A stretch of 62,899 nucleotides of DNA, filler included, from Diploschistes diacapsis (GCA_023645945.1; 8 parts of 8 records of this genome joined end to end with filler, not necessarily neighbours in it), one strand, 5' to 3'. Counted from the whole stretch's first letter, positions 3,220 through 57,962 are shown. Notes: a model not told the origin generated them from the sequence alone. Numbers and translations: made by a program.

Positions 3220-3790
3220 GGCTGGCTGCGCCACGACGTGTTGGCGAGCATATTATGATAAAGACTGTTGAAGAAGCCCTTTCTTATTAAAGACTCATGG
3301 CAGTATGAATGAATACAAGAGGGAGAGCTGATCAAAGAGGCAATGGATAGAGGCGTGAGGAATATCGCACGATACTATCATCATGAAATGGTTCAGATTG
3401 ACGGAAAGAACGATGATACTATCGACAATGTGCGAAGAGGGTCCATGAGAACATTCATTCGAACGAGATTTAGGCAGAGACCTCTTCTAGATCTGCATTA
3501 ACTGGAAAAGGCTGAGTTAGGAGAAAAGAAAAGTTAAGGAGTTTTGAGGACTGGAATACTATATCAATCAAGGAGCTTGTGAAGTTAAAGATGGGGCTGA
3601 TGTCTGAGGAAGACGGGTCTAACAAAAAAATAAATAAATATTTCTCAGAATACTAAAGCCGCTGATTCCTTGTGCGCAAGCGCTACGAAAATTCGTCTTT
3701 CTGGAGGGAAAACGGAGGCTGAGTGAAGGTATGAAGCCCTATGCCCAGATGAATGCGCTACTCCGGAAGGCAAGACTGGATGTGAGATAA
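3220..3790 (+). pseudogene. Fungal-type (FunK1, Pkinase_fungal) protein kinase relic with catalytic core deleted
   Basis: Not in the ORF track. Fragments AGCATTCWRAY..KPFLIKDSWQYE*IQEGELIKEAMDRGVRNIARYYHHEMVQIDGKNDDTIDNVRRG jump directly to C-terminal LF*ICI..KVKEFEDWN..ELVKLKMG..PLIPCAQALRKFVF. Stops and frameshifts throughout. Confidence 0.7.
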
Positions 3791-3880: not shown

Positions 3881-4759
3881 CTATGGCTTAATGAAATTGC
3901 CTCGAAAGAGAATGAAAGGTGTCAATTCCTCGCCATTAAGAGCTTCTAAAGCGTATTGACAGTCCTTCTCCTTTGCCCAATCCGTCGCAGTGCGTCCCGG
4001 CATATCCCTGATTGTGGTATTTGCGCCCCCGTCTAGTAAGAGCTTTGTTAACCTCCCGTAGTTCCGTCGGGTAGTATAGTGTAGCGGCGTGCATCCCTGC
4101 TTGTCTATCAAGTTCATTCCTGCTCCTCTGTTAATTAGTAAGCTGGCTATCTGTTTATCACGCCGTTCTACCGCTATGTGTAATGCGGATTTCCCTTCGC
4201 GATCCCGAGCTGATAACTCAGATCCATTGTCTAAAAGTAACGCTACCGTATCCGTCGACCTGTTCTCCACGGCCAAATGAAGCAACGTTTGGCCCCATTC
4301 AGGTATGCTGGACAGGGCCGCCCCGCATGAAAGAAGCTCCGCTATGGTCTTGGGATGGCCCCCTTTCGATGCCCAATATAACGCTGTCCGCTGATATCGA
4401 TCCTGCTCCGACACGGAAGTTCCATGTACCAAAAGCGAGCTTACTATCTCTTGATGGCCTGCCTTCGCTGCTGCCAGCAGCGGGGTCCAGTCAGCAAAGC
4501 CGCGGGGGGAGGGCTGGATGCCTTATTGAAGTAAGCTCATGATTTTGTTTAGATCGCCATCGGGCGCAGCACATTCAAGAATAATTTCGTCGTCTATATT
4601 TAATATAGACTCTCGGCAGATCGGGCAGCTATTAGTCTCGAATACAGCTTTTGTCAGACAGGCTTTATATGTCCAATGTGGATATTCGCACCGTAATCTT
4701 ACGGCGTTTTATTTAATCTCCCAGCTCTCTATATTAAGGTAACATGGTTCCGTAGCCAT
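3881..4759 (-). pseudogene. RING-finger plus ankyrin-repeat protein with in-frame stops
   Basis: One frame from ATG 4759: MATEPCYLN..K*NAVRLRCEYPHWTYKACLTKAVFETNSCPICRE..LLQ*GIQ..DWTPLLAAAKAGHQEIV, then about five ankyrin repeats (ORF 3881..4432). TAA stops at 4709-4711 and 4523-4525. Confidence 0.75.
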
Positions 4760-5244: not shown

Positions 5245-5373
5245 TACCTCCTACAATAATAACACATTATTATTGTATGCAAGCCATTCATTTCACTAGT
5301 TATTATTGCCTACTTAGTCACCTTACTTCCACTTTCAACAACAATAAATACGAAAACAAAAGATACGAAAAAT

Positions 5374-5455
5374 AGTAGATTTAAAAGCAGTAGGTTTAGA
5401 ACCAGTAGATTCGAAAGTAGTAGGTTTTAAAGCAGTAGGTTTAAAAGCAGTAGAT
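5374..5455. repeat. Degenerate 15-bp tandem repeat (AGTAGRTTTAAAAGC-like, ~5.5 copies)
   Basis: Units start at 5374, 5389, 5404, 5419, 5434 and 5449. Confidence 0.75.
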
Positions 5456-5751
5456 GCAAAAAAGATGCTACGTAATAATTCAGTTCAGTTCAACCAACCA
5501 ATATCCTTGACCGCGACTTTTCGGAGTTAATTTCTTATCTAGGGATTTTTCTGCGCCCATAAAGACACTAATCTGCAACTACAAGTCCTGCGCTTCGCTT
5601 AGGAATAAAAATCGGGTTGTATCTTCCTATTTAATGCTTACGGTAAACTCGAAAGCTGACCCCCCTTAACCAACCCTTACTCTGAGGCCTAGTTTCCGCG
5701 ATTGGAAGCGTCTACCGGCCTCTATTGGCGACAAGATGGAAAATCTGTGGC

Positions 5752-7748
5752 CTACGGAACTATGATTCTGATCCCCTTGGTTGTTAACTTGGGCAGCGGG
5801 ATCAAGAAGTCATGGGCCTGCTGAACGTCGCTCTCGTCTGTTTCAAACAGCTCAAACTTCGGTCCACCGGGCCGATATAGGACCGCAAGAGCGAGACTCA
5901 TTTCGGCTTGTGCTAGGCTGCCGCAACTAATGTCAGCACTATTGCATACCGGCCGCAGAAAGCTCGCTCTTTGACTTACTTCATTCCGAGGCAGTTGCGG
6001 GAGCCACGGCAGAAAGGTACCCAGTTGCGAATCACCTCAGGCGTGACGTTTCGCAGCCAGCGCTCTGGAAGGAACTTTCTAGGTTCAGAGTAGATGTTGC
6101 CATCCGAGTGTTAGAAGTATGCTGACATACCCACCGGTACCTACGCGCTGTGAGTAGAAGTCGGAGCTCGAGCCGCTGGGTCCTTACACCTGGAGGAATG
6201 GTCCACTCTTTATATTGAAGCGGAACGTCTGGTAGGACGCGTGACAGACGGTGCATGACCCCGTAGCTCAGTCTGGATGCAAGCATGGCGAATCAGTCTT
6301 CTGCGGTTTCGTGATAATAAACTGACATTCTTACCTAAACGCTTCCTTGATCAAAGCCTGCAAATAAGGAAGCCTCTCAAGCTCGACCCAAGTCGGTACT
6401 GCCTCCGGATATTGAGACATGAGCTCGGCGAGCTCTTCTCTTAGTTGTCCTCGGATGTCTGGATTTGCAAGAATGTAGTAGGAAACGAAACCAAGGGTTC
6501 GAGCAGTGCTGGCAGTTTCGCCGCCCATTAAAACCTGGGCTTCTTTCGCTAGTCGTTCATCCGACGATTCTGATTCCGGCATCTCACTATTCACGATATG
6601 ATCAAACAACGACAAACAATTCCCTTTAATTAGGCCCTGTTTCTCGTTATCTAGCTTTGTACGTTTTGCCTTGGCCACTTGTTCCAATGCAATCTGCTAT
6701 GCTTAGTGCTAGTCGAATTGCTGCTGGAGTAACCTACTTCTTTGGACCTGTTGGAAACCTGCCCGCTCGGAAATGCCCAAAGAATCAAGGACTCTGGTAT
6801 ACAGCTCGCAATTCTGCTTTTAGTCAGACAAGAACCTTTATCAACGACCTAGCATGGAACATGCTTACTGGACAAGCTGCGGGAAGCCTGTGAAAAGAGG
6901 CATTGATCGGACGATTGTGTGAATCAAATCGTACCTATCGACATGGTTAGATGCATAACATGTGGTTATTCACTTGCCAACATACCATTCTGGTGCAAGA
7001 TTAGGATCGTCTAAGAACTCCTTTTGATTCTCCCAGCATATACGTCCAATGATGTCGCCCGAAAATTCTGAAAAGGCATGATCTAGGCGCACCACACTCC
7101 CTGTCCCTTTCAAAGCCTCTGGACGACTAGCAAGTTCTCTGCCACTTCAGCGAGAACAGGCTGAAGACTGATGATTCCTTTGCGTGAGAAAAAGGGCTCA
7201 AGAGGCTTTCTCCTGAGCCTATGAAGATCATGGCCCGTTGTCAGTAGGTGAGATCCTTGAGAGTCGGCAATTTCCCAAGCCAATTAATGATGATCCACCA
7301 TGGAAATCGATGCCTTTGCAGAAGATATCGTAATTATCGTGCGCCGCTTGCTTTCTGCAACATAAACTTCGCTATATGCTTCGGGATCATTTATCGAAAG
7401 CTCTTCCGGAGTCACTCGGACAATGGGTCCTAGAAACCTCATGTAAGATTCTCAGGGTTTTCTTCAAGCTCAGACATATGCTACAAAAAGGGCCACAGTT
7501 GGAAGGGTAATTTACGAACCATATCTCTTATGCAGCTCTTCAATCTTGAATATGTATTTTCCATTGAGCCACCAGTCATAATAATACTCATACCACCCGG
7601 TAACAACCGCCAGCTTTGGACCAAGAAAATTCGACAATGGAGAGAAATACAGGCAATAAAATGACCAGAAAACTACTACAGCCAACGCAGACTGCAAATG
7701 CTCCAACCAGCGCAAAAGCCGAGAGACTTCCGTCTATGAGAAAGACAT
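5752..7748 (-). pseudogene. Cytochrome P450 (trichodiene oxygenase/TRI4-like group) pseudogene
   Basis: GPKLAVVTGWYEYYYD, GPIVRVTPEELSIND, GGETASTA, IKEAFR, PERWL and heme motif FCRGSRNCLG are present. TAG at codon 5 (7734-7736), frameshifts near 7340 and 7135, and TAA near 6112. Confidence 0.85.
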
Positions 7749-8263
7749 CAAAAGCTGATTTAAGTTGTACTATGTCGATAGAGAGAAGTGCTTGAGAAAA
7801 GACATGATCAAGGAAACCTGGTACTACGCTCCATTCCGAATGCTTACCGAACAGCTTCCCTTTGCGAGCTTCACATGAGTGGCTCGTAGGAGTCAGCGCT
7901 AGATGTCGCTAGACCCGCCTTCTGAAAAGATCTCCAGCCGGGTCGGATCGGCGCCCCTCTGATCTATGCCTGATACGGACTACCTCCGAGAGGGATTTGA
8001 ACACGCCAAGTACAATCACTCTGCAGCTCGTTATAGGCTGCTTTAAAAGATAGGTCCATACTAGAGCAGGCGTAAGATAGATAATTATCAACTTACCAAA
8101 CCCCCGCGTCTGGTCAGGAAGGGAAGCATGCAACTCATCGGCTCTAGCAACTAGTATATTATATAATGGTCCTCTTTAATGGGCCTGTAAAGCAGGCGGT
8201 GCATATTTCGCTTACACAGCGTAAAAAAGCGAGTGAGCCCTACCCACTTCCTATTAGGCTATT

Positions 8264-9498
8264 ATGGACTTTATCTACCCGGATGTGGTTGACCCGAGAG
8301 CCTACGACTCCGACGGTCTCTGCAGAGGCATTGCCTTGAGGAGACATCGCGATGTCAAAAGCGAAGAGCGGGGAGCTCTTCATGCTCAGGAGGACTGGAG
8401 CAGGCTGGTCGAGCCGGTACACTTCTACAATGGTGGTCTGGGTCATCGTTATAGTTTTATGTGTCTGACCCTACCCGAATGTCTTCCCGAGAGGCTTGAG
8501 ATTATGTCTTATGCCAATGAGTACTCCTTTCTGTATGACGGTACGTGGTAATGCTCCGTTTGAAAGGGAACGGGAAGCACTAACGTATTAGATGTAACGG
8601 AGCGAATTGATTCCGCCAAGGTATGCAGTCCTCTGCCAGCGGACCAAGTTCCCAGCTTTACTAGAAGAACAGCATGAAGGAGCAACGACTCGACTTCTCG
8701 AGGTGTTCAACGCAAAATCCCAAGCTCCAGTTTTCAGTGCTGCGGAAGCTGGGGCGAAGCAAATCCAGGAACAAATTTTCGCCCGTATGAAGGTAATTGA
8801 TAAGGAACGAGCTGCAATCTCCATGAAGGCCTGGTCAATCTTCATCCAACAATCCTCGAGCCGGCAAAGGACTGAACCATTTGCAAGCTTGGAAGAATAT
8901 CTGCCCTATAGAATCATGGATGGCGGAGAGATGTAGCCATCCCGCGGTCTAAAAGACAATTTGACCTGCTTGTTCTGACAGGATCTGGTTTGGCATAGTT
9001 ACTTTCGGCATGGCCCTTACGATTCATGAGAATGAAATGGACTTGATGAAAAAGCTAACCAGACCCGCGTTCGCTGCCATCAGTCCAACGAATGACCTCT
9101 ACTCCTGGAAGAAGGAGTATGCGGAAGCTCAGAGGGATGGTATGCCTCGTGTCGTGAATGCAATCTGGGTCCTGATGGGAGAACTCTCGATCTCGGAGGC
9201 CGAGGCCATGGAAGTATGCGGAAAGAAAATAAAAGATAGTTTGGTCGAGTTTCAAGGCATTCTGAAGACTGTAAGCGACGACAGTGGAATTTCTCTGGAT
9301 CTGAGGAAATACGTAGAAGCCCTCCAATACAGCCATAGTGGAAACGTCATCTGGAGTATCTATTGCCCAAGATACGGCTACCGGGACGATGCCGTCTGGA
9401 GTGGGCAGCCTCAGCTTTCTCGGAGTTTTGAAGACATTGGTCAGAACGCTACCACGCTCGCAGGGAAAACAGTGGCAGTGGATGAACCGAAAGTTTAG
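8264..9498 (+). CDS. Class I terpene cyclase, fusicoccadiene/ophiobolin-synthase N-terminal (cyclase) type, without prenyltransferase domain; ~360 aa
   Basis: Exons 8264-8540, 8592-8620, 8673-8932 and 8982-9498 splice in frame (1083 nt). Motifs PECLPERLEIMSYANE, DDVTE (DDxxE), YRIMD, NDLYSWKKE (NSE) and WSIYCPRY. Confidence 0.88.
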
Positions 9499-9616
9499 TG
9501 ATAGACTGACAGCATTGGAATCAATAGAATTTGGAAAAGTCCTGATGGCTAGCAATCGATTGTACAACTAGACTCTTCATAACACTACCGAGAATGCCTG
9601 GTTCATGTAATGCAGT

Positions 9617-10410
9617 TCAGCGAAAGTCGGCTACTTGCTGCATGCACCAAACCTGAAAATCTTGAGCATGTCCTGTCCCGTCCTCCTGCTTAGGCCTCAT
9701 TGCCTGCAAAAGATCTTTCCGCGGAGAAGGATGCAGTCGGCCCCAAGGAATAATATAACTACCATTTTCCTTTTCTGTCAGCTCGGGGGAAAGACCAGCC
9801 CAAAGCCCCGTGTAAGCTCCCAGCTTGGCATCGTGCAACAGAGGCGATGATGCGATCCTCATGAAGCTGCTGGCGTGCCTCAGTAGGTTCGTTTTGAGCT
9901 GGCCTGGATTCTGCGTAACGCTGATGATACCCGAGGCGCCGCTGTTCCTTGCGAGCTCGCTTGCTAAGAACCAGTTGCCCGTCTTCGATGCGACATAGTT
10001 CCTGGTTTGGTCTGTCGAAGGCGAGATGACGTCCTCGAGTTTGATGCCTCCCTTGGGCGCTGACATGTCCACCATCAGCGAGCTCGTCCAGACGAGGCGG
10101 GGAGGATCGTGCTCGCCACCCTGAGCTGCGGCATGCAAACAAGGTAGCAACAGTTGGGTCAGCAGAAATGGCCCGAGACAGTTTGTTGCGAGCTGAAGCT
10201 CATGCCCCTGCTTGGATACGCTGCCAGGTGGAGGCAAAGAGACGCCGGCGTTGTTCCACAAAACATCGAGCTTGGGTTCCCTGCTCTTGAAAAACTCGAC
10301 CGCTGGTTTGATGGTCGCAAGATCTTGCAGGTCCAAGGCGAGGTACTCGAGCTGACCCGCTTATGAGCACTCGAGGTAGAAGATTTGATGGATTTGATAG
10401 CTTGCTCAGC
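9617..10410 (-). pseudogene. Short-chain dehydrogenase/reductase (retinol-DH/WWOX-like), N-terminally truncated
   Basis: LDVLWNNAG, GHELQLATNCLGPF, YVASK and YIIPWGR are present. Frameshift near 10360; no upstream TGxxxGIG NAD(P)-binding motif found. Confidence 0.75.
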
Positions 10411-10657
10411 TTCATATCTTGCAGCTCAGCCAGCACCTCATAAGGAAGATAGGTAACGTCATTATTCAACCATGTCCGACGACATGGTGAGAGTTAATTA
10501 GCGAAGCCTGGCGAGAAGCGGTCTAAGCATCTTCCGCGGCAAGAACGGTGTGGGCCATCTTCGAGCTTAAGTGTTCTGACGCTCAGGCGATTGTTTGCAA
10601 AGATGGCAGACTTGCTTTCTTATCCCCAGCGTAAGACATCTGAAGTCACTGCCCAAT

Positions 10658-11778
10658 ATGAGCCAGATGGCTAATTCGAAGCACACCCAGGCCCGATGCT
10701 GCCATTTGGTTCGGCTCGACATGGAAAGAGGCCACAATGCATTGCTCATCGAGGGTATAGCAGAGTCTCCCCGGAAAACAGCATGGAGGCTTTCAAACTT
10801 GCCATCGAAGCTGGAGCTGATGCTATCGAGACAGATGTTCACTTGACTAAAGACCAGCAAGTTGTGCTCTCTCATGTAAGTGAACAGCATCGAGCACTTT
10901 CGGCCAATTGATCGTTGCCTGAAATTGCTCTAGGATGGTTCCTTGAAGCGTTGTTACGGAGTGAATGCCCGTATTTCGGACTGTAAATGGAGTGAAATCA
11001 GCACCATGAGAACTATTCGATCGCCACATCTGCCAATGCCTCGTCTGCGGGAGCTGCTACTTTATCTGTCCCAACCTGTGCTCGAGCACGTCTGAATACT
11101 TCTGGATCTGAAGGCATGAGCTTCAGAGCTCGGGATCCAGCCATGTAACCCATTCGTGTGAGCTGATTACGTCTAGTTAGATGACGACCCAGAAACCTTG
11201 CTGGCTTTGGTTTCGAAGAGGATAAACAGCAGCAGTGATCTGTCGGTTCCGTGGAAAAAACGCATACTACTAGGTTGCTGGGCGGTAGCAGACGCCTCGA
11301 TCATTGTCAAGTAAGATAGAATAACCAAGTATAGGAGAAGTATATACGACTGTGTGCTCTCTTCTTGCCTGGCCTCCCAGTCACTTTATCTGGCATACTC
11401 GACAACCCACACCTCTTCGGTCTTTCGATATCCCAACGTCTCTTGCACCGCAGTCCAAAAGACTCTCTATTTCTGGCCGCCAGGCCCCATGTTTGTAGGT
11501 AGGATGCGGAATGCGGGCCAACCGCTCATGTCTTGGATGGCGAGCAGCAAGAACGCAATGCAGTGGTGCATTGAAGAGGGCCTCGATGAGTTGTCACAGA
11601 CGATATAGAAGGGTTTCTCGAGTTATGTAAAAGCCCGATCAGAGCTAGAGCGGTGGCAGCAGACTGGATGTCCTGGTTTATCGCCGCAGGAGTCTACCTG
11701 CTAGCACTAGTCTTTGGGCTATACTTTGAACGTCGTCATGGTAGTCGCTCGGGTAGTAGAGCCAGAGAACGTCTTTAA
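10658..11778 (+). pseudogene. Glycerophosphodiester phosphodiesterase (PGC1/phosphatidylglycerol phospholipase C-like) pseudogene
   Basis: PQCIAHRGY..PENSMEAFKLAIEAGADAIETDVHLTKDQQVVLSH/DGSLKRCYG..MPRLRELL, with a hydrophobic C-terminal tail. TGA in place of the expected Trp at 11093-11095. Start approximate. Confidence 0.8.
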
Positions 11779-12087
11779 GATCTGGCGTCCAGCAATCTTG
11801 CAAGAGATCTCAACCAATAGTGCGTCCGTTCTCTCAGTGGAAGCAAGACTTGCAGAACGTTGTGGCATTTGGAGCATGATCTTTGACCCTACTCTTTGCG
11901 GCATGGAGGCGACAAAGCCATGCCACAGTAGAATCCTGCCGTCTTCATCTATCAGTGCAAGGCTGCTTCTTGTTTCCAAACTCCCATCAAAAACTCCACA
12001 CGACTCCGCGTAGTTGGCTCTGCTGATCTGGACCAGACACTACGATTTCTCTGGCACCGTCAGTGCCAAATAACTCTACTGGCTGCC

Positions 12088-13564
12088 ATGGAGCTGGAAG
12101 AGAGCTGGAGCTGGAAGAGAGCTGGAGCTGGCTCAAGCGAGCGAGCGTGGCATTCTCGCTGCTTATAGCGGTAGCTTCGAGCGAGCCTCTGAATCTTTAT
12201 TGCACTGGTTTTATACAGTATCCGCTCTGTGAAGCCTTATACCACGCTTCCTTCGACAATCTCTCCCATGTACCTGGTCCCCGCATATGGGCGTCTTCCT
12301 GTCTGCCATACATCTCTTCATTACTCCGTGGGAGGATTGTGCAGGACGTTGAGAAACTTCGCCACAGATACGGCCCTGCAGTGCGCATATCACCTAACGA
12401 GGTGTCTTTCGCTTCTCTCGAATCCTGGGTGGACATTCTGACCTTTCGGTCGGGCCATGCTCAGTTCATCAAGGATCCGATGTGGTGGGGCCAACAGCCA
12501 GGTCGGCCGGAGTCGCTCCTCAGTACGCCCAGCATTGAAAGCCACGCTCGAATGCGGAAGACGCTCAGCCCTGGTTTTACAGAATCGGCACTTAGATCCC
12601 AAGAACCCATTCTGCAAAGCAAGTCGCACTGCTGATCTCCAAACTCCACGACCAGATTGGAGGATTTGGAGCCACTAGGAAGGCTTTGGTCTTGGATATT
12701 GTGCCTTGGTTCAACTATACAACCTTCGATATTTTCGGCGACCTCGCCTTTGGGGAGTCTTTCGAGTGTCTACAGAATTCAAAGCTTCATCCATGGATCG
12801 AAACTCTCTTCTTCAGTGTCAAAGCCGCGACATTCGTCATATCGGCACGCTTTTACCCCCTCGTTGAGTTTCTGCTAATGAAATGTATCCCGGAGTCCAT
12901 CATGGAGAAACAGAAAGATCAATATCGGTATATCTCTGATAGAGTCCAGTCTCGTTTTAACTGGGAAGTCGAGCGGCCAGATCTGATGGAACATGTAATC
13001 AAGAACAACGACAAGGGTGGTATGACGATACCAGAGATCCAGAGCACTTTCGCCTTCCTCGCGAATGCCGGTAGCGAGACTACAGCCACTACGCTTAGCG
13101 GAACTATCAAGTACCTCATTTCATGTCCAAACAAGCTCAAGGTGCTGGAGCAAGAGCTGCGACAGGCATTTTCCACTGAAGATGCCATTACATTGATCGA
13201 GGTGGAGAAACTGCCTCATGTGAATGCCGTTATAAATGTAGCTCTCCGACTTTGTCCACCGGTCCCAACTATCCTTCCCAGACTCGTACCCCAGGGCGGG
13301 GACCAAGTGTCAGCCATCTGGCTTCCTGGCAGCGTACGTGTGCTTCATATTTTGTCCAATTTCCGTAGAAAGCCTTGCTACTAGATTGACTTCCAAAAGA
13401 GTTGCGTCTTAAGAGTATTAGCCCGCCTGATCTGGACTTTCGATATCAGTCGCGGAGTAGAGAGCGAGCATGACCTTCTCCGTTGGGACAAGCTGAAGTG
13501 TTTCCTGCTCTGGGAGAAGGAGCCAGTATTGATCAAGCTGGCGCCAAAGGGCTCTGTCAATTAG
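12088..13564 (+). pseudogene. Cytochrome P450 (TRI11/CYP65-like) pseudogene
   Basis: VPGPRIWA, YGPAVRISPNEVSF, TTFDIFGDLAFGESFECL and AGSETTAT are present. 17-bp tandem duplication after the ATG, frameshift near 12618, and the PERF/heme-Cys segment is absent after ~13335. Confidence 0.85.
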
Positions 13565-13939
13565 AACCATACGTGTTGCATGGGTTCTGGTATGCAGATG
13601 TTGAGACCATTATATTCTTAGGGCGATCAGGCCTCTGGGTAGATTAAGGACAGGCAAGTTTGGATAATGGATACTAGAACGCGGCGCGGATCTATAAACT
13701 AACGGGGGCTTCCCCGTTCTATCTATTGTTAGCACGGACGAGGGGTTGACGCCAAATGCGAGCGCATGTGCTAAGATATAAGATCCAGTGCTCCAGGATG
13801 ATGCATATCACATCTGAATACAATGGCTGGGATACTGGGGCTGTGATCCCGATGACTAAGGCTATGAACAATGTAACCAGGTAAAAGCTCTTTGTTTAGA
13901 TACTGCGATATATCACGAGAGCAACAAAAATCTTTTGAT

Positions 13940-14400
13940 AGTAGCTTGCACATCCTAACCACCTAACCCTTAACAAGATAGGAAAACCCATCATGTTTAT
14001 AGAAATTCGGCAAAGCGCATACCGAAAATTCGCTGATATGGCAGAAACGGAGCTTCCGCAAAAAGAGCATTTATTCCTGACGAGCCACGGCCCGTAAAGG
14101 CCCTCCTCCTTCGTCCGGAACTCCTCTTTTGCAGCCCCTAGCTGGCCTTCCAATACGGCTGCTACTTCATTTATATCTCTCAATGGCGCCGGGAATAGGT
14201 TCTTTGTGGTACTTTCTTAAAATACGCGGCTTGGGCGTAGTAGGGCCCAGTAGCCGGGAGATCTGATAGAAAAGCCGCTGCTTCGCCTGATCGGCCTCCT
14301 TTGTTCCCGGCGGCGAGGCTCCGCTTGTGGTCTGTGTCGTAGCGCTCGATCAGATAACTCGATGATGGCGCCGGTCTCCGTCGGCGTGATGTCTGTTCCT
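13940..14400 (-). pseudogene. Glutathione S-transferase (Ure2-like) remnant
   Basis: Frameshifted fragments ETGAII/YLIERYDTDHK../AKQRLFYQIS/GPYYAQAAYFKK/PIPGAIERY/EVAAVLEGQL/PWLVRNKCSF. Confidence 0.65.
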
Positions 14401-15537
14401 TTATAAAAAAAGTTGATTTTACCGAAACAGAAACAGGGAAGGATGAACGAGATAATACAATATTATATAGAATCCAGAGGTCGTTGCGAGCCAGACTTGC
14501 TCTCTTTGCCTTCCTCTCACATACTGCCCTTTTTAATTGGAAGACAAAGTCTGTGGCGTTTTGTTATTTGCTGTAGAGTGAGAGAATAAATCCCTCGCAG
14601 GAGTTTCCGCCCGTGAAATGTTTAGTGGCACCAGGACGACACTCTACTCGTGACCAAGATTCACGAAAGAGCTCCTCCCAGCACTCAAGGTACCCATTGC
14701 CCACCAAGCTCTCACTGCCTAGAATTTCAAAACACCGCCATATCTGCACCAACCTCGATTGCAAACCAATTCCGAATTTCGACCGCCACCAGACTATCAA
14801 TGCCATATCGATGCATCGGCTTGGACCAGTCTATGTCCTCCAATGGAACAAGACACTGCGCGAGCCAATTTCGATGCCAATCGAGTGGTCACCCACTGTG
14901 GCCGCCTCGGAGAAGTGAAGTATCTTAATACAATAGCACAGAATTCGGATTTTCAACATCTTGTTACAGTAGGCCGAACAGGGAAGAATGAAAAAGAGAT
15001 GGCCTGAGTCTGGTATATCTGCAGGGGCAAGCGTGATGAAGTTTGCCCTTGGCCAAACGCTGCAGTCCTTCCACGTCGGCATGCGAACTTGAAACAGGAA
15101 TCGGGAATACCGCCGGGAAGAGGAAGAGCGTTGTTTGCACAGGGCGGGGTACGGACACAGGCAAATTGCCTGCAAGCAACGCAAAATGATGATAATCCTT
15201 TCGAAAATGATGAAAACTAGCTTAAAGCAACATGGTACCAAGATGGTCATCCTGTTTTGTAAAACTACCTACCGTTGTGTGATGCCTATTATTGACACGT
15301 CCAAAAACCTAATGCTACGACAGAGGTGTGCCGAAAATTCCCAACCGGCCACTACAATTAAGTGAAGTATTCGAGAAAGATATCACGCTGGTCGAGATAG
15401 GGTAAAAGATCATGATATAGCTATAGAGTTTTGAAAACAAGCTTAAAGTTTTATAGTCAGGCAACTGGTCTATATATATGTTCTAAAAGCGATGCAACTA
15501 CCTGCGTAAATTGAAACGTTCACTCGGACTCGGAAAA

Positions 15538-18500
15538 TCAGTCGTCCCACTCATCCATCTTGTACTGGCTGCGGCCTACAGCTGTCTCGCTGACAGCGAC
15601 GATACTCTTTGCGTTCATGATGTCGAAAATGGCCAGATCGGCTTTCATTTCCTTAGCGAACCAGTTGCGCAGCTCGATGGCCAAGAGCGAGTCGACACCA
15701 TAAACGGGCAGGGTCTTGCTAGTATCGATATCTGTTACGGGCATCGAGAGCGCACGGCCCAGTTTCGACGCTAGGGCGTCCGACACAAGAGCTGCGGCCT
15801 CGGCTAGTGAAGTGATGGCGGCAAACTGGGCTGCATAGTTGACCGTGCTTGAGTCTGCCGACGTCGTCGAAGCGTCTTTCTGGTCGCCACTGTGGTGCAA
15901 GGCGCGGTAGAACGGCAAGTGCATAAAATCCGGCACTTCAGCACCACAACTTCTCGTGATTTTTGGAGTGGCAAGACCAACGACCACTTGACAGCTTTGG
16001 TCTGTCAAAAAAGGCTTGGAGCTGCAGTATCTGTCCAGTGAGGCGAGTATCTGGGCTTCGCTGACTGGCGTCAAGTAACCCAAGTTGAATAACCCATCCT
16101 GGAAGTGCCCGGTCTTCTGCCATCACGCCAACGTTCGAAACAGCGCCCAAGTCTATTGACGTGGCTTTCTCACCAAGCGACACGCGATAATGAGCCAGAG
16201 CATCTTCGAATGTATTACCGGCGGCGTAGTTCGACTGGCCTATGTTTCCTATGATCCCTGAAATCGAGGAGAGCATAATGAAAAAGTCCATTGCTGGAGG
16301 AAGAGTGGCATGCAGGTTCCAGGAGCCTTGTATCTTAGGTTGAACGCATACTTTCCACTGTCTGAACGTCATGTTGTCAAAGAGCGAATCCTATCCAGAA
16401 GCATTAGCAAATCCTAATCTTATCTGAAACGTTTTTAGCGCTATATAATAGGGAAAGGGCAAGCATATGAGTTCGTCATGACTCTGATGCTTCTCTGACC
16501 ATTCCAATCGGGCCAAAATTCAAATGAAGAATCGAAGTGACACTAACCTGGAGCTGCATAGCCGCCTGAATGCAACCCTTGACAGCTGGCATACCACTTT
16601 TCGGGCATATCTCAAGCGCAGCACGCAATACTTCCGGATCCGTAATATCGCATTGTGGTGTCTCTACCCGAACGCCTTGTGAGGCTAAGCTTTCAACAAG
16701 TGCCTTAGCAGCACTGGTCTTTTGGCCTGACCGGGATAACAGGATAAGGCACTTCGCTCCCCGATCAGCCATTTATTGGGCAATATTTCGACCGATGCCG
16801 CCTAGTCCGCCTGCAATCATGTATGAGGCTTCTGTACAAAGATTACATTCTGGTCTGACGTCGAGAATCGTCTGTAGAAAGCCGGTCAGTAATATTAACA
16901 AATATGTTTCCTTTGGGTCCTCACCTGAACTTCTGCTCCTTGCTCTATGCCTATGACTATCTTGCATACATGTTTCCCAGCTTGCATCAACCTCAAGGCT
17001 TCTTCAACCTAAGAGATTGGATAAACTGAAAGAGGAAAGGGGATATTCATTCGCTTCAAGCAAGCAACAAGGTCCACGACAGCTAACAGAGAGTCATGCC
17101 AGGCTTGTGGGCCTTCGTCATACATATGGTTCAGATCAACGCCGATGAAGCTGAACGGAAACATCGGTAGCTTAGCATGAGCATGGATATCGCTTTTCCC
17201 GATCTCGACAAATCGGCCAAAAGAAGCAATACAGTCCCAGGTCGCCTCCAGAAGCTCGCCTGCCAGTGGATTAAGAACGACGTGTACTCCATGATTGCAC
17301 GTCGTACGCATGACTCCCTGGGGCGAAGCTTGGGTCTCTACCATAGAACACGTGGTCCTACGGGATTCCGTACTCGTCTATGGGTAAGTCCCTTTTCTGA
17401 TCAGAACCCACAGTTGCATACACTTCCGCACCAATGTATTGAGCAAGCTGAATAGCAAATTGCCCTGTTCCACCAGCGGCAGCGTGTATTAAAACCGATT
17501 CTTCCTTTCGCAAACGTGCTGCCTCGATTAACGAATAATATGCTGTGACCCGAGCGACAGGGATGGAAGCGGCGTCTCCGAAAGATAGGTCGTCAGGCAT
17601 CTTGTCATAAACGTGCTTGGGCTGCGAGCGAAAGTCCGATAGCAGTCATGAATGGCAGCACAAACACGATCTCCAGGCTTGAAACCGGATTCAACCCCAG
17701 TTTTGCTAACAATTCCCGAGCATTCGCCACCAATCGTCTTTTTGTTAACACGACCTAGCGAGATTAGGCCGTCCATGAAGTTCACCCCAATCGCCTTTAC
17801 TTCGATCTCGACTTCTGATGGCCCTATTGTCATATCAGGTAGGGTGTCCTCGATGAATCTGATAGAGTCCAGTAATCCTGGGCTCACCACAGCCATCTTT
17901 AGAGGTGGACATAGCCCAAAAGCTTGAGTCCAGTTGGGCAACCATCTTTGCATGCATATCTCTATCAATCGTAAGCGCCTGAATCAGCCTGTTAATATGC
18001 AGAAGGCCGGCCTTTTCCACATAATCTACCTCCGCATCTGTCGAACTTCCATTGATAGACATCTGCAAAGCGTTTGCAATCGGTTTGAGATACTCCCACA
18101 TCGATCGTCGAGACTCAACTGCTAGGGTGGTAATCTTAAGGTTGCTGTTCTCTCTTTGGATGACGCGAGCGAGTCCAGTGATAACTCCAAATCCGGGCGA
18201 AGCTGTTAGTCCACCTCCACCGGTTACCCAAAGTAGTTTCTGGACAGACGAGACCAAGGAGTGAATGCTTGTGAAGAGAGCAGCGTCTAATTCCGTTAGA
18301 ATGGGCCTTCAAGTTCGATGAGCGACACGACAGTGTGGTCAAAACGCTGCTTGTCAGACCTGATAAGGCTCTGTAGATGAATGATTTGGCAGCTCGTATC
18401 TGACTCCACGAGGTTGTTTTGAAATTGCTCAGCAATCTCTGCTTGAAGCCGTGACGACTCATCAATAACAAAGCACAAAGGATGAGGCGAACTATCCTTA

Positions 18501-20500
18501 GTGATTGATGAAGACTTGGAAGAGACGATCAGCCCCATATAATGAAGAGCATCGTCTTGGTAGTCTCTAATCCGAAGCTCTCTTCCTGAAACTCATTCTG
18601 CAAAAGAAGCGTCCCGCCATTGGTCACTTGGAAGATAAGAGCTTGGGTGACAGGGCCAATGCATGGTTTTCATTCCACCAACTTGGCAGCAAACCGAACA
18701 TAAAGGCCGCTTTCTAGTCATTAGGACAAAAAGCCTCGAACAAGATGAGCTTTCTTTTATGCAGGAGTAATCCGCCCATTTCCTTCAAGGGTTTATTTCA
18801 CTCACTTGCGATTGGTAGGGGTGAGCTGGATATGATGGATGGGAAAGCAGCTGCAATCTCGCCGGAAGACTGGCCGATAACTGCGCGGCAGGCGCCAAAC
18901 CCCCCAAGACTTTGCATAAATCTACTAGAGCTAGCTGCATAGCCGTGCATAGAGGCTGACTAAGGGCTGGATCATCTATGCGGGAGTCTTCAAATGATTC
19001 GAATAGTTGGGCTTGAAGGGACCAGCCAGAGCGAAGCTCCCGTAGATAGATTTCTGCTCTGTAGAGACACTGCTTGAAGACGTCGTAAAGGTGGAGATCT
19101 TGCCCCATTTCTGCGTATTGAAGCCGCTTGACCACAGAACACAAAGGCTAGCGCATATCTTTTGGATGTTCGCACTGGCTTGGAAAAAGAAATGCCATCT
19201 CTCGATTGCGCGACAGAGTTCGCAACGGGATATGATTTCTAACGGAGCAGGGTCGAAGGAATGCCAAAGTATTGGCGAGGTGTATCAAGTAGCTTTCTTC
19301 ATATTGCCAGCTCTCGAAGCTACCCACGCCCTCGGCAAAAGGATCTTTGTGCATATATTCATGCATTATAAAGTCTTTCTCATCCGCTGTAGACCAAAGG
19401 AGAAGCTTAGGTCGGGTTGTATTCTCGTTACTTTATCGACGAAATCCATTTCGGCTTGGTTTCGATGATCGTTCAAGGCCCCGAAGCCAAAAGAATTTAC
19501 GGAAGCTCGACGCAGGCCGGGTTGAGGTCAAGGAACATGTTTCTCTGGGAATCGAAGAGCTCATGGGTCGGCATCAATCTCAGGGTTCAATTGCTCCAAG
19601 TTTGTGTTTGGTGAGATGATGCCTTTCTCCCACATGAATAATGTTTGGTAACTGCAGCTATACAGCTACATCCATCAAGATGACCAACATTAGCTTTGAC
19701 TGCTCCCACGTAAAGAGAATCATCAACAGTTAAGTCCCTAACAGCTGCACCAGTTTCATGAGATTGTCCTTCGGTATCCCAGGGTAAATAAATTAACATC
19801 CTCGTTCCACAAATGAGCTTGGATCCTCACCTTCGAAAACCTCATATCGAGACCGGATTTTTCGTACGTTGCTTTAATCAGCTCAGTTTGTGCTGGAGTA
19901 CTCGGCTGAGTAGTGCCTGGTGTACGGCCGTCTTGATTATAGCCCATTGAACGAATAACTCCCCAATAACGTCTGCATCAGCAATTCCATCCCCCGGCCT
20001 TTTCAGAACGACTATACCAAAACCCTCTCTCTTCGAGCGTAGCCATTTGCACGATGGTCGAAGCTATAGCACTTACGATCGGGCGAAAAGAAATTCATGT
20101 TTGATATTGATAACATTTTCTCAAGCCCGTAAACAATGTTAGAGCCAGCGACTAAGGCTTATCATTTTCTTAGCCATACTCGTGGGTAGTTTACAAAGGT
20201 TTCATTTACCATACTGGATTCTCTGTTGCGTGACCCTTGTACAGCAATAACTAGGGCAACCAAACTGCTAGAACAAGCAGTGTCGATATGTAGACTAGAA
20301 CATTTGGGGTTGAAAACCCAACTTGGACGAATTCATTGATACCGCAGGCCATCCACTCACCATGCATCGCCGCACTAGCAACATCTTCCAAAAGAAGCTG
20401 CGTAAGTTGCTTCCCTGGGGAACCTGAAGGAAAAACCAATGATAGCAACGGCCTCTTGTCAGCTCAAACTCTGGTGCATGACTAACAGATTTTAGCATGA
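15538..20500 (-). pseudogene. Highly reducing iterative type I PKS relic (KS-AT-[DH/MT mostly deleted]-ER-KR-ACP)
   Basis: KS: AVAIIGFSFRFP (~20450), IDTACSSS (~20266-20289), DHRANGYARREG, VKANVGHLDG, VNSFGFG. AT: SQPLCTAMQLAL, AVIGQSSGEIAAA (~18850-18885). ER: LIHAAAGGTGQFAIQLA. KR: IAGGLGGIG, GQSNYAAGN. ACP: GVDSL. Many stops and frameshifts. Confidence 0.9.
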
Positions 20501-21998: not shown

Positions 21999-23249
21999 CT
22001 ATGTCGATAACATAATCGGTCCACCGCTTGTCTTGCTTGCTATCTGAGCTCCCATAAGCGTATTGTACTGTTTGGCTTTATGCTGACGAAGATCAAAGCT
22101 CTCTTTCCACTGGCTTGCGCCTATTCTCGCCTGATCATGACTGTTTCGGGCGGACCAACTTGGGAAGAAGGGGCGTATGGAGAAGTTCGGCCTTGAAAAG
22201 GTTGAAAGTTTCTGCGAGACAGTGCGAAAAAATCGGGGCGATGAGGGCAAACAGCTGCACGTTATTGGAACAGAGAGCTCTGCATAAGTCCAGAAACCCA
22301 TGGTAGCTTCGTTGTACGTCACATCTCCTGCCTCCATAAGTATAATAGAGTAATAAAGGCGAAGAACCGATGTGACACAAACGCTTCAAGGTAATTAGTT
22401 ATATAACGGAACCTTATAGAGTACTCACAACAAGCCTGTTAGAAAGATCAGAGAGACTTGTAGTCGTCGTTTGAAGGGCATTTGCAGGTTCCAGATGACT
22501 CTTTGTGGGAGCAGAAGGATAATGAAATCAGAAGCCACATTGAATGCTGATGATGTAATATTTCCTGTAAATGTGTTCAAGCAGGTGCCCGATGTCATGA
22601 GTACATTCCAAAACTTTTCACGCGGGTTGCATAGGAATATTTCAACCAAAGTGATGCCCACATAGAAGAGGAAGTTCAAGCTAATCAGTGTCCAGACCGA
22701 CCAAAAGAATAATCCTCGCTTTGAGCGTGTTGACAATATATGTAGATACTGCAGCAGAATTGAGATCTTGATGACCAGAAATGCAAGCCCGTAAATTATG
22801 GACGCTATGTTTGTGTACTATACTCAATGTTAGCCTGAGTAAGAAGATAGAGTCTGGATTATAGCTACATAAAGAAAGTTCATAAAGCTTTTCAATTGGA
22901 CATTCCACTGATGGATACCGCCACCGTTATACATTAGCAAGCTCGTAGGAACTGTGTAGCCAATCCACATCCCAAAGCCTAAGACAGCAAGATCTAAAGT
23001 AAGCGTTAACGGTATACAAGGAAAGGATTCTTTATGTTCACAGTCGTCGCTTGCCAATTTACGGATCAAGAACGCCTTTGTGTAGATACGCATGGCAATG
23101 GCTAGTGTAGATATCGGAACACACAGCGTAATCGTCACTATATACCAGTCGAACAAGGTGGGCGGGTCAACCAGGTTTGAGTTTTGATCGGGCGGAGGAG
23201 CTGCCGCTGGTCCATCAAGCAGCTGCTGAATTTCCACGGGAGTTTGCAT
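21999..23249 (-). CDS. PTH11-like/fungal rhodopsin-domain integral membrane protein (SAT4-type), intact, 4 exons
   Basis: GPAAAPPP..SNLVDPP, MRIYTK, DDY, GIHQWNV, IKISILLQY, SDFIILLLPQRVIWNLQM, WTYAELSVPITCSCLP. Three GT-AG introns splice in frame. Confidence 0.85.
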
Positions 23250-24099
23250 GCTCTATTGGTGGAATGGTCAGACGCTGCAGAGTAATTGCTCAACCGACAG
23301 CAAGGGGTTAAGGAAATAAACTTGAAGAGGAGCTGGGAGAGCATTAGAAATGAAGAAAGGATTGAAGCATTTCAGCGGTTAGGATTTGACGCCTCATGAG
23401 GGCCTTTATCTAAGTTGCTTTCCTGTACCACGTTGCATCAGGTACAGCCCCAACTTTGCCGTTACTGCACCGTAAACAGTCAACCGCACCAATACAAGGG
23501 AACGACTGCGATTGTTTAACTCAGTACTTTTAAAGGTGATATTCAAGACCGCGAGAGTGGTCGCGTTTGTCTATCAGGTGGGCAGGTAATGCACACAAGT
23601 CAGGACTTCAGTGACTGGTGCCGTCCCATTAATTGATGATCCGTTGATCCGATCATTGATGGCCAGTGATAACTGGACACCCGGTTATCTTGTTTTATCT
23701 AAAGCATACCCACTAACCAGCTTGTTGAAACGTGTTTCAACAGCAGTTTGATCCTTCTTAAGCTAATGTTCCAAACGTTCCAAGCCAGATGTCTGCGGGG
23801 TATGCAGCTTGAAGACGATCTTGGCACAAAGTGTGCGGCCCATTTGTATGGTCGGAACGGAGTCTGTGGTTGGGGCGCCAAGGGCTCTTGATGGGCTGTT
23901 GGTCAATTCCTAGCACAGGAAGGTTACCGACCTACCGAAAGCACTGATCGCGTATGCGTTTAGAAAGGGAACATAATACGGAGGATTGTGCGAGCGGCAT
24001 TGCTTCGAAGGAAACATAATCAGGCCAGGAATTTGCTCTGGAGCAAAACGAACCAGAGCTCTCAATGAACGCCAGACTCCGCTCATCCTACTCGCGCTA

Positions 24100-25401
24100 C
24101 TATTCTAATTGTACGCTAATATCCCGTCGGATATTGATACCTTTCAACGGCATGGACCGCCGTTCCTTTACGCTGGACTCTAAGGCATTCGATGCGCCCG
24201 CGGACACGCTGACATACGTGCCGAAAAATGGGGCTTCATAGATGTTATTCCACTGCGGCTGCCACAGGCGCTGTTGATCCTGTTCCGGCCTGCATCTATC
24301 TCGAATAACTGGCGCTTGCACACCGACCTTGTTTCTGGGACGGAGCAGTGACCGATAGCCGAACTGCGTCCCTCTCTGGGTGAGCTGGAAGATTGCTGGC
24401 AGGCAGACAGCGAAAATAGACAGTCCTGCCTCCGCAACGGCCCAATAAAGATAGGATATCAGGGCGTCTATGGTAGTTTTGTTACTAGATTAACCAAATG
24501 AGTACGGCGGACCTCACGTACAACTAAAGTCGTTATCAATTTCTTGATATCCAACTTGCACAGACATAATCAGCCGGCCAAGCGATAAGAAGGCGACGCT
24601 GCATAATAGTGAGTTAAAGTATTTCATGTCTAGCTGGGCACTCACCCGTATCCAAGTATGAAGGAGATGGAGATAGCCACTTTCCTGGGCCAGCGTAAAC
24701 TTAGTTTGATCACTTGTGGTATAGGGAGAACCAGGATCAGAATATCATTAGCAAGATTACCGATGTTCGCTACCAGATAGGTCGTAAAGGCATCGATGCA
24801 TTGTTCTCTTGTTTCTGCGAGCGTCCAATAGGCCGAAATGGGTCTGCAAACAAAAAAAGCATCGAAAACAAATAATGCTGCTAGCCAAACAAGAGAAGTA
24901 CAACAAAGGAGGTAATAGACAACCTTCCAAGTGCAGTTAGGACTGCGCCGAACGTTGAAGATACGACCGTAGAATGCAAGGACGGATAACCGCACCAGCG
25001 AGGTGGTGACATCCCAAATGAGTTGGGCGCCATAGAGAATTTGAAGGTCGTGGGAGAATACCGCCGGGTCTATTTGCTTTGAATGTTGCCCAATTCCATG
25101 ATTGAGTAGGTACGAGACTATTATGGTATCCGCCAGTGCCAGAGGCTGGTCGGTAATATTAGTGTTCCCTTCGAATCAAGGATGGCTTCATCTTAAGGAC
25201 TGACAAGTGCGCCGAGTACTAGCCAGTCATCCAAGCTGTCAGTCAATCAATATGAGAAGTTAACAACGGGTCATGAGGGAATCCTAACTGAAATCTTAAT
25301 CCATTGGAGATAAAATTAGCCCAGCATCGAAGGCTAAGGGATATAACTGCAATTATCATGTTGACGATGGTGAAGGGCAAAAGCCCAGAAAGTGGATACA
25401 T
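24100..25401 (-). CDS. Second PTH11-like/fungal rhodopsin-domain integral membrane protein, intact, 5 exons
   Basis: SLRCWA, LDDWL, GIGQH, VRLSVLAFYGRIF, CRPISAYW, NDILILVLPIPQV, YWAVAEAGLSIFAVCLP. Four introns splice in frame; ATG at 25401. Confidence 0.82.
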
Positions 25402-27412: not shown

Positions 27413-27512
27413 NNNNNNNNNNNNNNNNNNNNNNNNNNNNNNNNNNNNNNNNNNNNTTAATTAATTAANNNNNNNNNNNNNNNNNNNNNNNNNNNNNNNN
27501 NNNNNNNNNNNN
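27413..27512. other. Artificial contig linker
   Basis: 44N-TTAATTAATTAA-44N, with stops in all six frames. Confidence 0.98.
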
Positions 27513-32509: not shown

Positions 32510-32609
32510 NNNNNNNNNNNNNNNNNNNNNNNNNNNNNNNNNNNNNNNNNNNNTTAATTAATTAANNNNNNNNNNNNNNNNNNNNNNNNNNNNNNNNNNN
32601 NNNNNNNNN
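32510..32609. other. Artificial contig linker
   Basis: 44N-TTAATTAATTAA-44N. Confidence 0.98.
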
Positions 32610-37604: not shown

Positions 37605-37704
37605 NNNNNNNNNNNNNNNNNNNNNNNNNNNNNNNNNNNNNNNNNNNNTTAATTAATTAANNNNNNNNNNNNNNNNNNNNNNNNNNNNNNNNNNNNNNNN
37701 NNNN
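37605..37704. other. Artificial contig linker
   Basis: 44N-TTAATTAATTAA-44N. Confidence 0.98.
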
Positions 37705-42699: not shown

Positions 42700-42799
42700 N
42701 NNNNNNNNNNNNNNNNNNNNNNNNNNNNNNNNNNNNNNNNNNNTTAATTAATTAANNNNNNNNNNNNNNNNNNNNNNNNNNNNNNNNNNNNNNNNNNNN
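42700..42799. other. Artificial contig linker
   Basis: 44N-TTAATTAATTAA-44N. Confidence 0.98.
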
Positions 42800-47763: not shown

Positions 47764-47863
47764 NNNNNNNNNNNNNNNNNNNNNNNNNNNNNNNNNNNNN
47801 NNNNNNNTTAATTAATTAANNNNNNNNNNNNNNNNNNNNNNNNNNNNNNNNNNNNNNNNNNNN
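47764..47863. other. Artificial contig linker
   Basis: 44N-TTAATTAATTAA-44N. Confidence 0.98.
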
Positions 47864-52820: not shown

Positions 52821-52920
52821 NNNNNNNNNNNNNNNNNNNNNNNNNNNNNNNNNNNNNNNNNNNNTTAATTAATTAANNNNNNNNNNNNNNNNNNNNNNNN
52901 NNNNNNNNNNNNNNNNNNNN
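52821..52920. other. Artificial contig linker
   Basis: 44N-TTAATTAATTAA-44N. Confidence 0.98.
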
Positions 52921-57862: not shown

Positions 57863-57962
57863 NNNNNNNNNNNNNNNNNNNNNNNNNNNNNNNNNNNNNN
57901 NNNNNNTTAATTAATTAANNNNNNNNNNNNNNNNNNNNNNNNNNNNNNNNNNNNNNNNNNNN
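57863..57962. other. Artificial contig linker
   Basis: 44N-TTAATTAATTAA-44N. Confidence 0.98.

Follow-up and report, generated by a model that had tools for sequence, protein, structure and literature searches.

Positions 5752-20500 of a 62,899-nt window from Diploschistes diacapsis (GCA_023645945.1), the window being the whole stretch of DNA that was analysed, carry the remains of a secondary-metabolite gene cluster. The locus lies entirely within the first piece of the window (1-27412), which is contiguous. Seven enzyme genes follow one another here: a cytochrome P450 (P450-1), a terpene cyclase (TC), a short-chain dehydrogenase/reductase (SDR), a glycerophosphodiester phosphodiesterase (GDPD), a second cytochrome P450 (P450-2), a weakly recognised glutathione S-transferase (GST) and a highly reducing polyketide synthase (HR-PKS). 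Six of the seven are damaged, and TC alone is intact. In the six neighbours, conserved residues are replaced by in-frame stops, the frame shifts where an intron would not fit, and parts are deleted. Seven genes of secondary-metabolism type within 15 kb are far beyond chance, and the locus is a relic secondary-metabolite cluster of a lichen-forming ascomycete, an ordinary kind of genomic relic: adjacent genes of pathway type carry independent lesions, which neither repeat-induced point mutation (RIP) nor sequencing error explains.

A sequence-only reading of the same DNA had listed these seven enzyme gene types in this place and order, had counted stops, frameshifts or deletions in six of them, and had called the whole a decayed, or fossil, cluster. 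All seven types were recovered by Pfam scans, matches to PDB chains and homologue mapping (GST weakly so), the count of six stands with lesions in each, and the description as a decayed cluster agrees with disabling lesions in six of the seven secondary-metabolism genes. Some frame changes that would pass for frameshifts without such tools are introns, namely all three in TC and probably that at 16548-16390 in the PKS. One further element, the orphan remnant of a second acyl carrier protein (ACP), was absent from that reading. The Pfam scans took all stop-to-stop open reading frames (ORFs) of at least 22 aa in the region. The identities of the genes, their lesions and the intactness of the cyclase are directly observed, and we describe them first.

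The surviving terpene cyclase

The cyclase gene lies on the plus strand at 8264-9498. It was identified by a Pfam match to Terpene_syn_C_2 (PF19086; E 9.8e-11 on exon 4, within the plus-strand ORF 8965-9495) and reconstructed by tblastn and splicing. Its relatives align by tblastn in three frames with zero residues missing at the joins, giving exons at 8264-8540, 8592-8620, 8673-8932 and 8982-9498. The intervening introns are short and regular: intron 1 (8541-8591, 51 nt) reads GTACGT...TAG and contains a CTAAC branch site, intron 2 (8621-8672, 52 nt) reads GTATGC...CAG, and intron 3 (8933-8981, 49 nt) reads GTAGCC...CAG. The spliced coding sequence is 1083 nt long and encodes 360 aa, with its sole stop at the end (9496-9498). 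The encoded protein carries DDVTE at residue 92, NDLYSWKKE at residue 226 and a C-terminal RY pair at residue 319.

A word-limited search returned four relatives from 1417 candidates. Three of these stand alone, at 320-369 aa, and belong to Ikaeria aurantiellina (KAL8948519.1; a lichen metagenome-assembled genome, MAG), Melanomma pulvis-pyrius and Anthostomella pinea; the fourth, P0004, is a 716-aa chimeric cyclase-prenyltransferase from Gnomoniopsis. TC is 48.9, 51.6 and 48.4% identical to the stand-alone proteins P0001, P0002 and P0003, respectively, and 43.3% identical to the cyclase half of P0004. These closest relatives are themselves uncharacterised. Among solved structures the top match is the fusicoccadiene synthase PaFS (5er8; exon 4, E 1.4e-33), followed by stellatatriene, astellifadiene, TvTS and variediene synthases. 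Exon 4 shares 59 of 131 residues with the PaFS cyclase domain (~45%, counted by eye from the printed alignment), and the Ikaeria relative P0001 matches PaFS with E 2.5e-104 across 338 residues.

We also considered whether TC might be a truncated chimeric synthase, and rejected this. Its tail aligns loosely with the linker of P0004, the C-terminal polyprenyl synthetase domain is not present, the 3' end of the SDR gene lies 120 nt from the TC stop, and the closest relatives are stand-alone. A tblastn search of the whole window with the prenyltransferase half of P0004 found no prenyltransferase remnant, only chance matches (E at least 1.8), all of them on other pieces. On sequence grounds TC is assigned to the class I cyclases, as a stand-alone member of the clade of the PaFS cyclase domain. 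The earlier description of a terpene cyclase thereby gains a more precise form, that of a stand-alone relative of di- and sesterterpene cyclase domains with PaFS as its top solved match.

The predicted enzyme would ionise a prenyl diphosphate, most likely geranylgeranyl diphosphate (GGPP), by means of Mg2+ held by DDVTE and NDLYSWKKE. Because the contig is without a prenyltransferase, the enzyme would depend on the housekeeping pool for this substrate. The product of cyclisation would probably be a hydrocarbon of the 5-8-5 type.

Lesions in the six neighbouring genes

The HR-PKS pseudogene occupies 20470-15541 on the minus strand and retains part of the ketosynthase (KS), the N-terminal part of the acyltransferase (AT), a pseudo-ketoreductase (psiKR), an enoylreductase (ER), a ketoreductase (KR) and an ACP. 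The corresponding Pfam pieces run colinearly from 20332 to 15541 as KS_N, KS_C, AT, an sdrA-like NAD-binding domain (psiKR), ER, KR and ACP. Intact relatives of 2405-2476 aa have the order KS-AT-DH-CMeT-psiKR-ER-KR-ACP (DH, dehydratase; CMeT, C-methyltransferase), and the homology identifies the gene as originally a full HR-PKS. Aligned with the Xylographa soralifera protein P0136 (2458 aa), the locus yields 11 colinear high-scoring segment pairs (HSPs) with nine frame changes, at least five of which leave no room for an intron (around 19647/19644, 19465/19441, 18917/18881, 17934/17920 and 16115/16080). The change from 16548 to 16390 is probably a genuine intron; no residues are missing there, and many library matches are ORFs of ~280 aa that begin at this point. 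One further frame change could also be an intron. Of the nine in-frame stops within HSPs, seven coincide with aligned residues (W, W, L, S, T, Q and W). Only 543 nt are left of residues 621-1594 of P0136, a stretch that takes in the remainder of AT, the whole of DH and CMeT and the beginning of psiKR, so that ~2.4 kb (about 790 aa) are gone. In the KS, 75 nt stand in place of residues 20-158 of P0170, with ~112 aa lost.

The debris of this gene has entered the public databases. A library search with the C-terminal ORF of the PKS returned the 295-aa 'hypothetical protein' P0128 (KAI4154118.1), whose blocks are identical to 16772-15541 of the window (minus strand); this gene model was put together from KR-ACP remains. 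It contains one probably real intron (~16539 to 16390) and one invented intron (~16037 to 15918), which skips the frameshift near 16104.

Between GST and the 3' end of the PKS lies the orphan ACP remnant (14730-14876, minus strand; PP-binding E 1.8e-5, ACP_SdgA_C). Its identity with ACPs from HR-PKS relatives is 53-70%, and with the ACP of the neighbouring PKS, to which no DNA similarity was found, it is 57.5% over 40 aa. This divergence from the neighbouring ACP marks the remnant as the relic of a second HR-PKS once present at the locus.

P450-1 spans about 7748-5755 on the minus strand and is matched by the Pfam p450 profile in two frames, with profile positions 220-333 on 6334-6696 (E 2e-13) and 371-414 on 5979-6110 (E 5e-9). 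A TAA stop at 6111-6113 sits inside the Pfam-aligned conserved block, next to the PERW region, and the haem motif FCRGSRNCLG is preserved at 6014-5985. By reading of the frames, the likely ATG is at 7748, a stop follows four codons on (7736-7734), and the central part switches between three frames; with a close homologue lacking, the lesions are not exactly countable. ESM Atlas groups P450-1 with ascomycete P450 clusters.

P450-2 lies at 12088-13564 on the plus strand (p450 E 1.5e-22; Pfam piece 12596-13381). Its family comprises cytochromes P450 (CYP) annotated as 'isotrichodermin C-15 hydroxylase-like', and a search found 287 matches among 1982 candidates, with a best identity of 59% among the matches listed. 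Directly 3' of the ATG at 12088 stands a perfect 17-nt tandem repeat of TGGAGCTGGAAGAGAGC (2.5 copies, 12089-12131), by which the ATG is out of frame with the rest of the gene; reading from the ATG ends after 26 codons. The repeat has the look of a recent duplication that arose once the gene was dead. Two HSPs abut in different frames at 12617, where an intron would not fit, and the change is a frameshift. Additionally, the haem loop has been lost in a 43-residue gap relative to P0008, and a stop follows at 13382-13384. Neither P450 therefore combines an intact frame with an FxxGxRxCxG loop: P450-1 has kept the loop and its frame is stopped, whereas in P450-2 the loop is deleted.

The SDR remnant (9620-10360, minus strand; adh_short E 4e-12) is a clean 247-aa frame with no stop, 49% identical to aa 931-1185 of the Hypoxylon texense protein P0052. 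Its adh_short coverage is confined to profile positions 50-129, and the first ~47 positions of the profile, which hold the NAD(P)-binding Gly motif, are absent. A stop lies directly upstream, the first Met is residue 96 of the ORF, and the active-site YVASK is present. A search upstream for the N-terminal part found matches to aa 860-930 of P0052 at chance level only. As a separate observation, an intact SDR ORF of 323 aa is found on another piece of the window (48936-49904, minus strand), with 44% identity over 42 aa to the N-terminal Rossmann part of P0052; this gene has no connection with the locus.

The GDPD remnant is placed at 10603-11700 on the plus strand, of which ~10717-10938 is verified and the 3' limit is drawn by eye. 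The Pfam ORF 10675-10908 matches positions 1-43 of the 244-position PF03009 profile (E 1.4e-16), amounting to ~60-70 residues that include the catalytic HR...E.D.H stretch. In PDB, 29 GDPD chains match query residues 40-113 only (chain residues about 5-88). An in-frame stop at 10672-10674 separates the first ATG from the domain. The second frame gave 0 matches against PDB at E<=10, and the body of the gene (10934-11605, read through its stops) gave 135 word-sharing candidates in a set of 5.8 billion proteins, none at E<=0.001. ESM Atlas supplies the family label GDPD and nothing beyond it.

A putative remnant of an Ure2p-class GST is placed at 13900-14600 on the minus strand, with a verified core at 14152-14362 and outer limits set by eye. 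In the core, two frames each match PcUre2p4/PcUre2p6 (4zb6/4zb7) weakly, in a colinear and interleaved manner: one frame covers chain residues 79-127 (E 0.007-0.045) and the other 94-147 (E 0.055-0.079), each match being marginal when taken individually. Together they are weak but consistent evidence for a GST, and the interleaving is the pattern that a GST broken by several frameshifts within ~200 nt would give. Pfam gave no match to a GST domain at E<=1, and the C-terminal ORF 13899-14216 matched in PDB only a guanylate kinase, by chance (E 0.47). Pfam searches of three-frame read-throughs of GDPD, GST, P450-1 and SDR found no further domains. Stretches resembling the body of the GDPD, the C-terminal part of the GST and the Rossmann motif of the SDR were seen by eye, are unconfirmed by any tool, and are offered as leads only.

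Outside the locus, the left flank contains weak matches to RNase H1 N-terminal-like sequences, a fungal-type protein kinase fragment and an ankyrin-repeat ORF (444-965, 1105-1275, 3313-3498 and 3884-4522). The kinase fragment has 48 residues, corresponding to profile positions 185-232 of 387. The content of this flank suggests that decay or fragmentation reaches beyond 5752-20500. Just beyond the 3' end of P450-1, AT-rich tandem repeats with periods of 15 and 45 (5340-5463) may mark a cluster boundary; of all the 1.5-kb bins, theirs alone has indices resembling RIP (TpA/ApT 1.12, second index 0.95). The right flank carries two Fung_rhodopsin-domain genes on the minus strand (22002-23252 and 24103-25175). 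In the first, profile positions 60-233 are covered across an intron-sized gap, and in the second only 32-181 were detected, so that this gene may also be damaged. Beyond 27412, seven linkers of the form N44-TTAATTAATTAA-N44 (27413-27512, 32510-32609, 37605-37704, 42700-42799, 47764-47863, 52821-52920 and 57863-57962) join pieces of ~5 kb, TTAATTAATTAA being a stop in all six frames. The window is thus a concatenation of separate contigs, and adjacency across linkers is meaningless. On these other pieces the genes are of the usual fungal housekeeping kind and their frames are long and open, as in Rad4 (1102 aa), an EH-domain protein (697 aa) and PTPA (437 aa).

Probable ancestral modules and the route of decay

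The most likely ancestry of the locus would involve two modules. One would have been a small terpene module made up of P450-1 and the cyclase, which are divergently transcribed with ~515 nt between their start codons; a divergent arrangement is common for co-regulated cluster genes. The other, again most likely, would have been a reducing-polyketide module of SDR, P450-2, GST, the PKS and a second PKS of which the ACP alone is left. P450-2 and SDR form the only pair at the locus with a hint of conserved linkage. In P0052 (XXH00551.1, 1189 aa), a P450-2-like part (51% identity) is fused with an SDR-like part (49%): an N-terminal stretch of 380 aa without assignment is followed by the P450 at 392-839 and the SDR at 886-1010+. 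The protein is probably a merge of neighbouring genes, and the fusion implies that P450-2-like and SDR-like genes are neighbours in Hypoxylon texense.

Relatives of TC and of P450-2 are not neighbours in the three species that have both. In Melanomma, 3446 accession numbers separate KAF2786945, the relative of TC, from KAF2790391, the relative of P450-2. In Anthostomella (Uu.00g116090 for TC, Uu.00g009710 for P450-2) and in Gnomoniopsis (N0V93_007816 and N0V93_006568), the two relatives are on contigs of different length. Furthermore, the named full-length relatives of the PKS come from Xylographa soralifera (two proteins), Pleomassaria siparia, Apiospora phragmitis and Thozetella, species that are absent from the list of TC relatives and from the P450-2 matches listed. 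The co-localisation data, all of them weak, lean towards a locus assembled from modules over a conserved seven-gene unit.

The sequence-only reading had proposed one hybrid terpene-polyketide pathway instead. Spelled out, all seven genes would have served a single route, in which a diterpene core was oxidised by the P450s and the SDR and acylated with the HR-PKS product as in hypoxysordarin, now decayed here and with intact copies elsewhere. The tight packing of the genes, their short intergenic gaps and the divergent P450-1/TC pair fit this proposal, as does the joint death of six neighbours, which is expected after a pathway is abandoned; and the published gene lists of sordarin-type clusters do place a stand-alone PaFS-like cyclase alongside P450s and a PKS (PMC12006653, PMC9095873). 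We nevertheless consider it unlikely. Pfam scans of 1-27412 detected no acyltransferase, no prenyltransferase or GGPP synthase (GGPPS), no transporter and no transcription factor, and likewise no glycosyltransferase or SdnG-like gene; the prenyltransferase was also sought by tblastn. No species is shared between the best relatives of TC (Ikaeria, Melanomma, Anthostomella, Gnomoniopsis) and those of the PKS (Xylographa, Pleomassaria, Apiospora, Thozetella), and the four PKS-relative genera and Ikaeria do not appear among the best 120 of the 287 P450-2 matches. In the three species with relatives of both TC and P450-2 the genes are not adjacent, and a literature search for such a gene set found no description of one. 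No evidence ties the seven genes to a single pathway, or the two modules to a common product.

A more elaborate proposal is that the neighbours record an undescribed hybrid pathway of a fusicoccane-type diterpene and a reduced polyketide, with a GST and a phosphodiesterase step, intact in other Lecanoromycetes or Dothideomycetes, and that selection has kept the cyclase as a stand-alone producer of a hydrocarbon after the tailoring genes were lost. We regard this as quite improbable, and until intact syntenic loci are known a new hybrid pathway is speculation.

As to how the genes were lost, the six neighbours have been inactivated by ordinary mutational decay, through stops, small indels, the 17-nt duplication and deletions of up to ~2.4 kb. 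The alternative that the lesions are artefacts of a MAG or low-quality assembly (indel errors and chimeric joins), the genes being functional in the organism, draws on a source record that names itself a MAG and on a public annotation that builds its 295-aa protein across PKS remnants. It is very improbable in view of the seven PKS stops on conserved aligned residues and the P450-1 stop inside a conserved block, of deletions of 43 aa, ~112 aa and ~790 aa, and of the clean TC, with three correct introns, in the middle of the region. Intact long ORFs of 1102, 697, 550 and 437 aa stand elsewhere in the window, and a systematic sequencing or assembly fault is unlikely because the cyclase and these ORFs are clean. 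Inactivation of the cluster by RIP after duplication is scarcely credible: among the seven stops at aligned PKS residues, W is the residue lost in three cases and Q in one, as C-to-T or G-to-A transitions would bring about, but judged by the usual thresholds the RIP indices of 5752-20500 are negative (TpA/ApT 0.72, (CpA+TpG)/(ApC+GpT) 1.36), its GC content of 0.49 is not below that of the flanks, an AT-rich shift is not seen, and the lesions are mostly indels and deletions, which RIP does not make.

The state of the cyclase can be set against this decay. By our own tally the neighbours carry ~2-4 lesions per kb, at which density the chance of a lesion-free 1083-nt coding sequence is ~0.01-0.1, and the lesion-free frame lends weak support to retention by selection. 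That retention and the modular history, like the substrate and product class of the cyclase, are matters we infer.

Several points weigh against this account. The P450-2 relatives in Melanomma, Anthostomella and Gnomoniopsis may be paralogues, which would make their non-adjacency to the cyclase relatives weak evidence, and a distance in accession numbers is a mere proxy for distance on the map. With a MAG as its source, a local mis-join at the locus is possible on sequence alone. The chance estimate behind the retention of the cyclase is crude, and an intact ORF is no proof of expression or activity. The product class hangs on ~45% identity to PaFS over one exon, in a clade whose members make different di- and sesterterpenes. 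Finally, the GST call is weak (best E 0.007) and GDPD is mostly unrecognisable, so that the module membership of these two genes cannot be judged. With these points taken into account, we hold it probable that, as a whole, the locus is a relic with a surviving PaFS-type cyclase and two ancestral modules.

If this is right, the locus adds one more example of cluster death in which the tailoring genes and the PKS went first and the core cyclase has outlived them. It also carries a caution for genome mining: in the public annotation, remains of a dead PKS pass for a 295-aa 'hypothetical protein', and cluster-finding programs would report a terpene-PKS hybrid here. As a lead, it offers a PaFS-type cyclase of a lichen fungus that is intact, stand-alone and uncharacterised. 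The locus is neither a recognised pathway nor demonstrably a new one, and it opens no long-standing question.

Comparison with known systems

At the level of the cyclase, the nearest points of reference are the PaFS cyclase domain (5er8) and the chimeric di- and sesterterpene synthases, which share with TC the Terpene_syn_C_2 domain and the DDxxE and NDxxSxxxE motifs. PaFS is chimeric, with a C-terminal prenyltransferase, whereas TC is a stand-alone protein of 360 aa and no prenyltransferase remnant was found in the window.

At the level of gene content, the sequence-only reading had pointed to sordarin. The sordarin (sdn/tdn) clusters are listed as containing a stand-alone cycloaraneosene synthase, a GGPPS, four P450s (B/E/F/H), SdnG, sugar genes, a PKS and a PKS methyltransferase (PMC12006653 Table 1; PMC9095873). 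Such clusters do combine a cyclase, P450s and a PKS, and that part of the comparison stands; as an analogy for this locus it is not shown, and the gene set differs. Compared by gene list, and not by SdnA sequence, the sordarin/hypoxysordarin clusters and the locus have in common only a stand-alone cyclase, P450 and PKS as kinds of gene. Relative to those lists, the locus is without the GGPPS, the Diels-Alderase SdnG, the glycosyltransferase, the GDP-mannose dehydratase, the methyltransferases, the FAD oxygenase and two of the four P450s, while its GDPD and GST are not among the genes listed for sordarin clusters (PMC12006653, PMC9095873).

Clusters of the brassicicene type are described as holding a chimeric synthase, an alpha-ketoglutarate dioxygenase, an nmrA-like gene, four or five P450s and a methyltransferase, with an SDR and an acetyltransferase described for the Alternaria brassicicola cluster only and not for that of Pseudocercospora fijiensis (PMC5006380). 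The brassicicene C/fusicoccane clusters thus resemble the locus in a PaFS-type cyclase, several P450s and, in A. brassicicola, an SDR. They differ in the chimeric form of the synthase and in their dioxygenase, nmrA-like gene, O-methyltransferase and acetyltransferase, and in that description they are without PKS, GST and GDPD. On the gene content given in these sources, we reject the identification of the locus as a sordarin or a brassicicene cluster. The gene set had been called unrecognised before, and, set beside the sordarin and brassicicene sets as published, it indeed matches neither in content. A full-text literature search found no paper on a fungal gene cluster combining GDPD, a terpene cyclase and a PKS, and no lichen cluster with a fusicoccadiene-type terpene synthase appeared among the titles and opening lines of abstracts that the search returned.

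The closest general parallel is with relic fungal clusters, of which the decayed bikaverin and aflatoxin-type clusters are published examples. Like them, the locus consists of neighbouring genes with independent lesions and with their synteny kept; it differs from them in that its core cyclase alone is intact.

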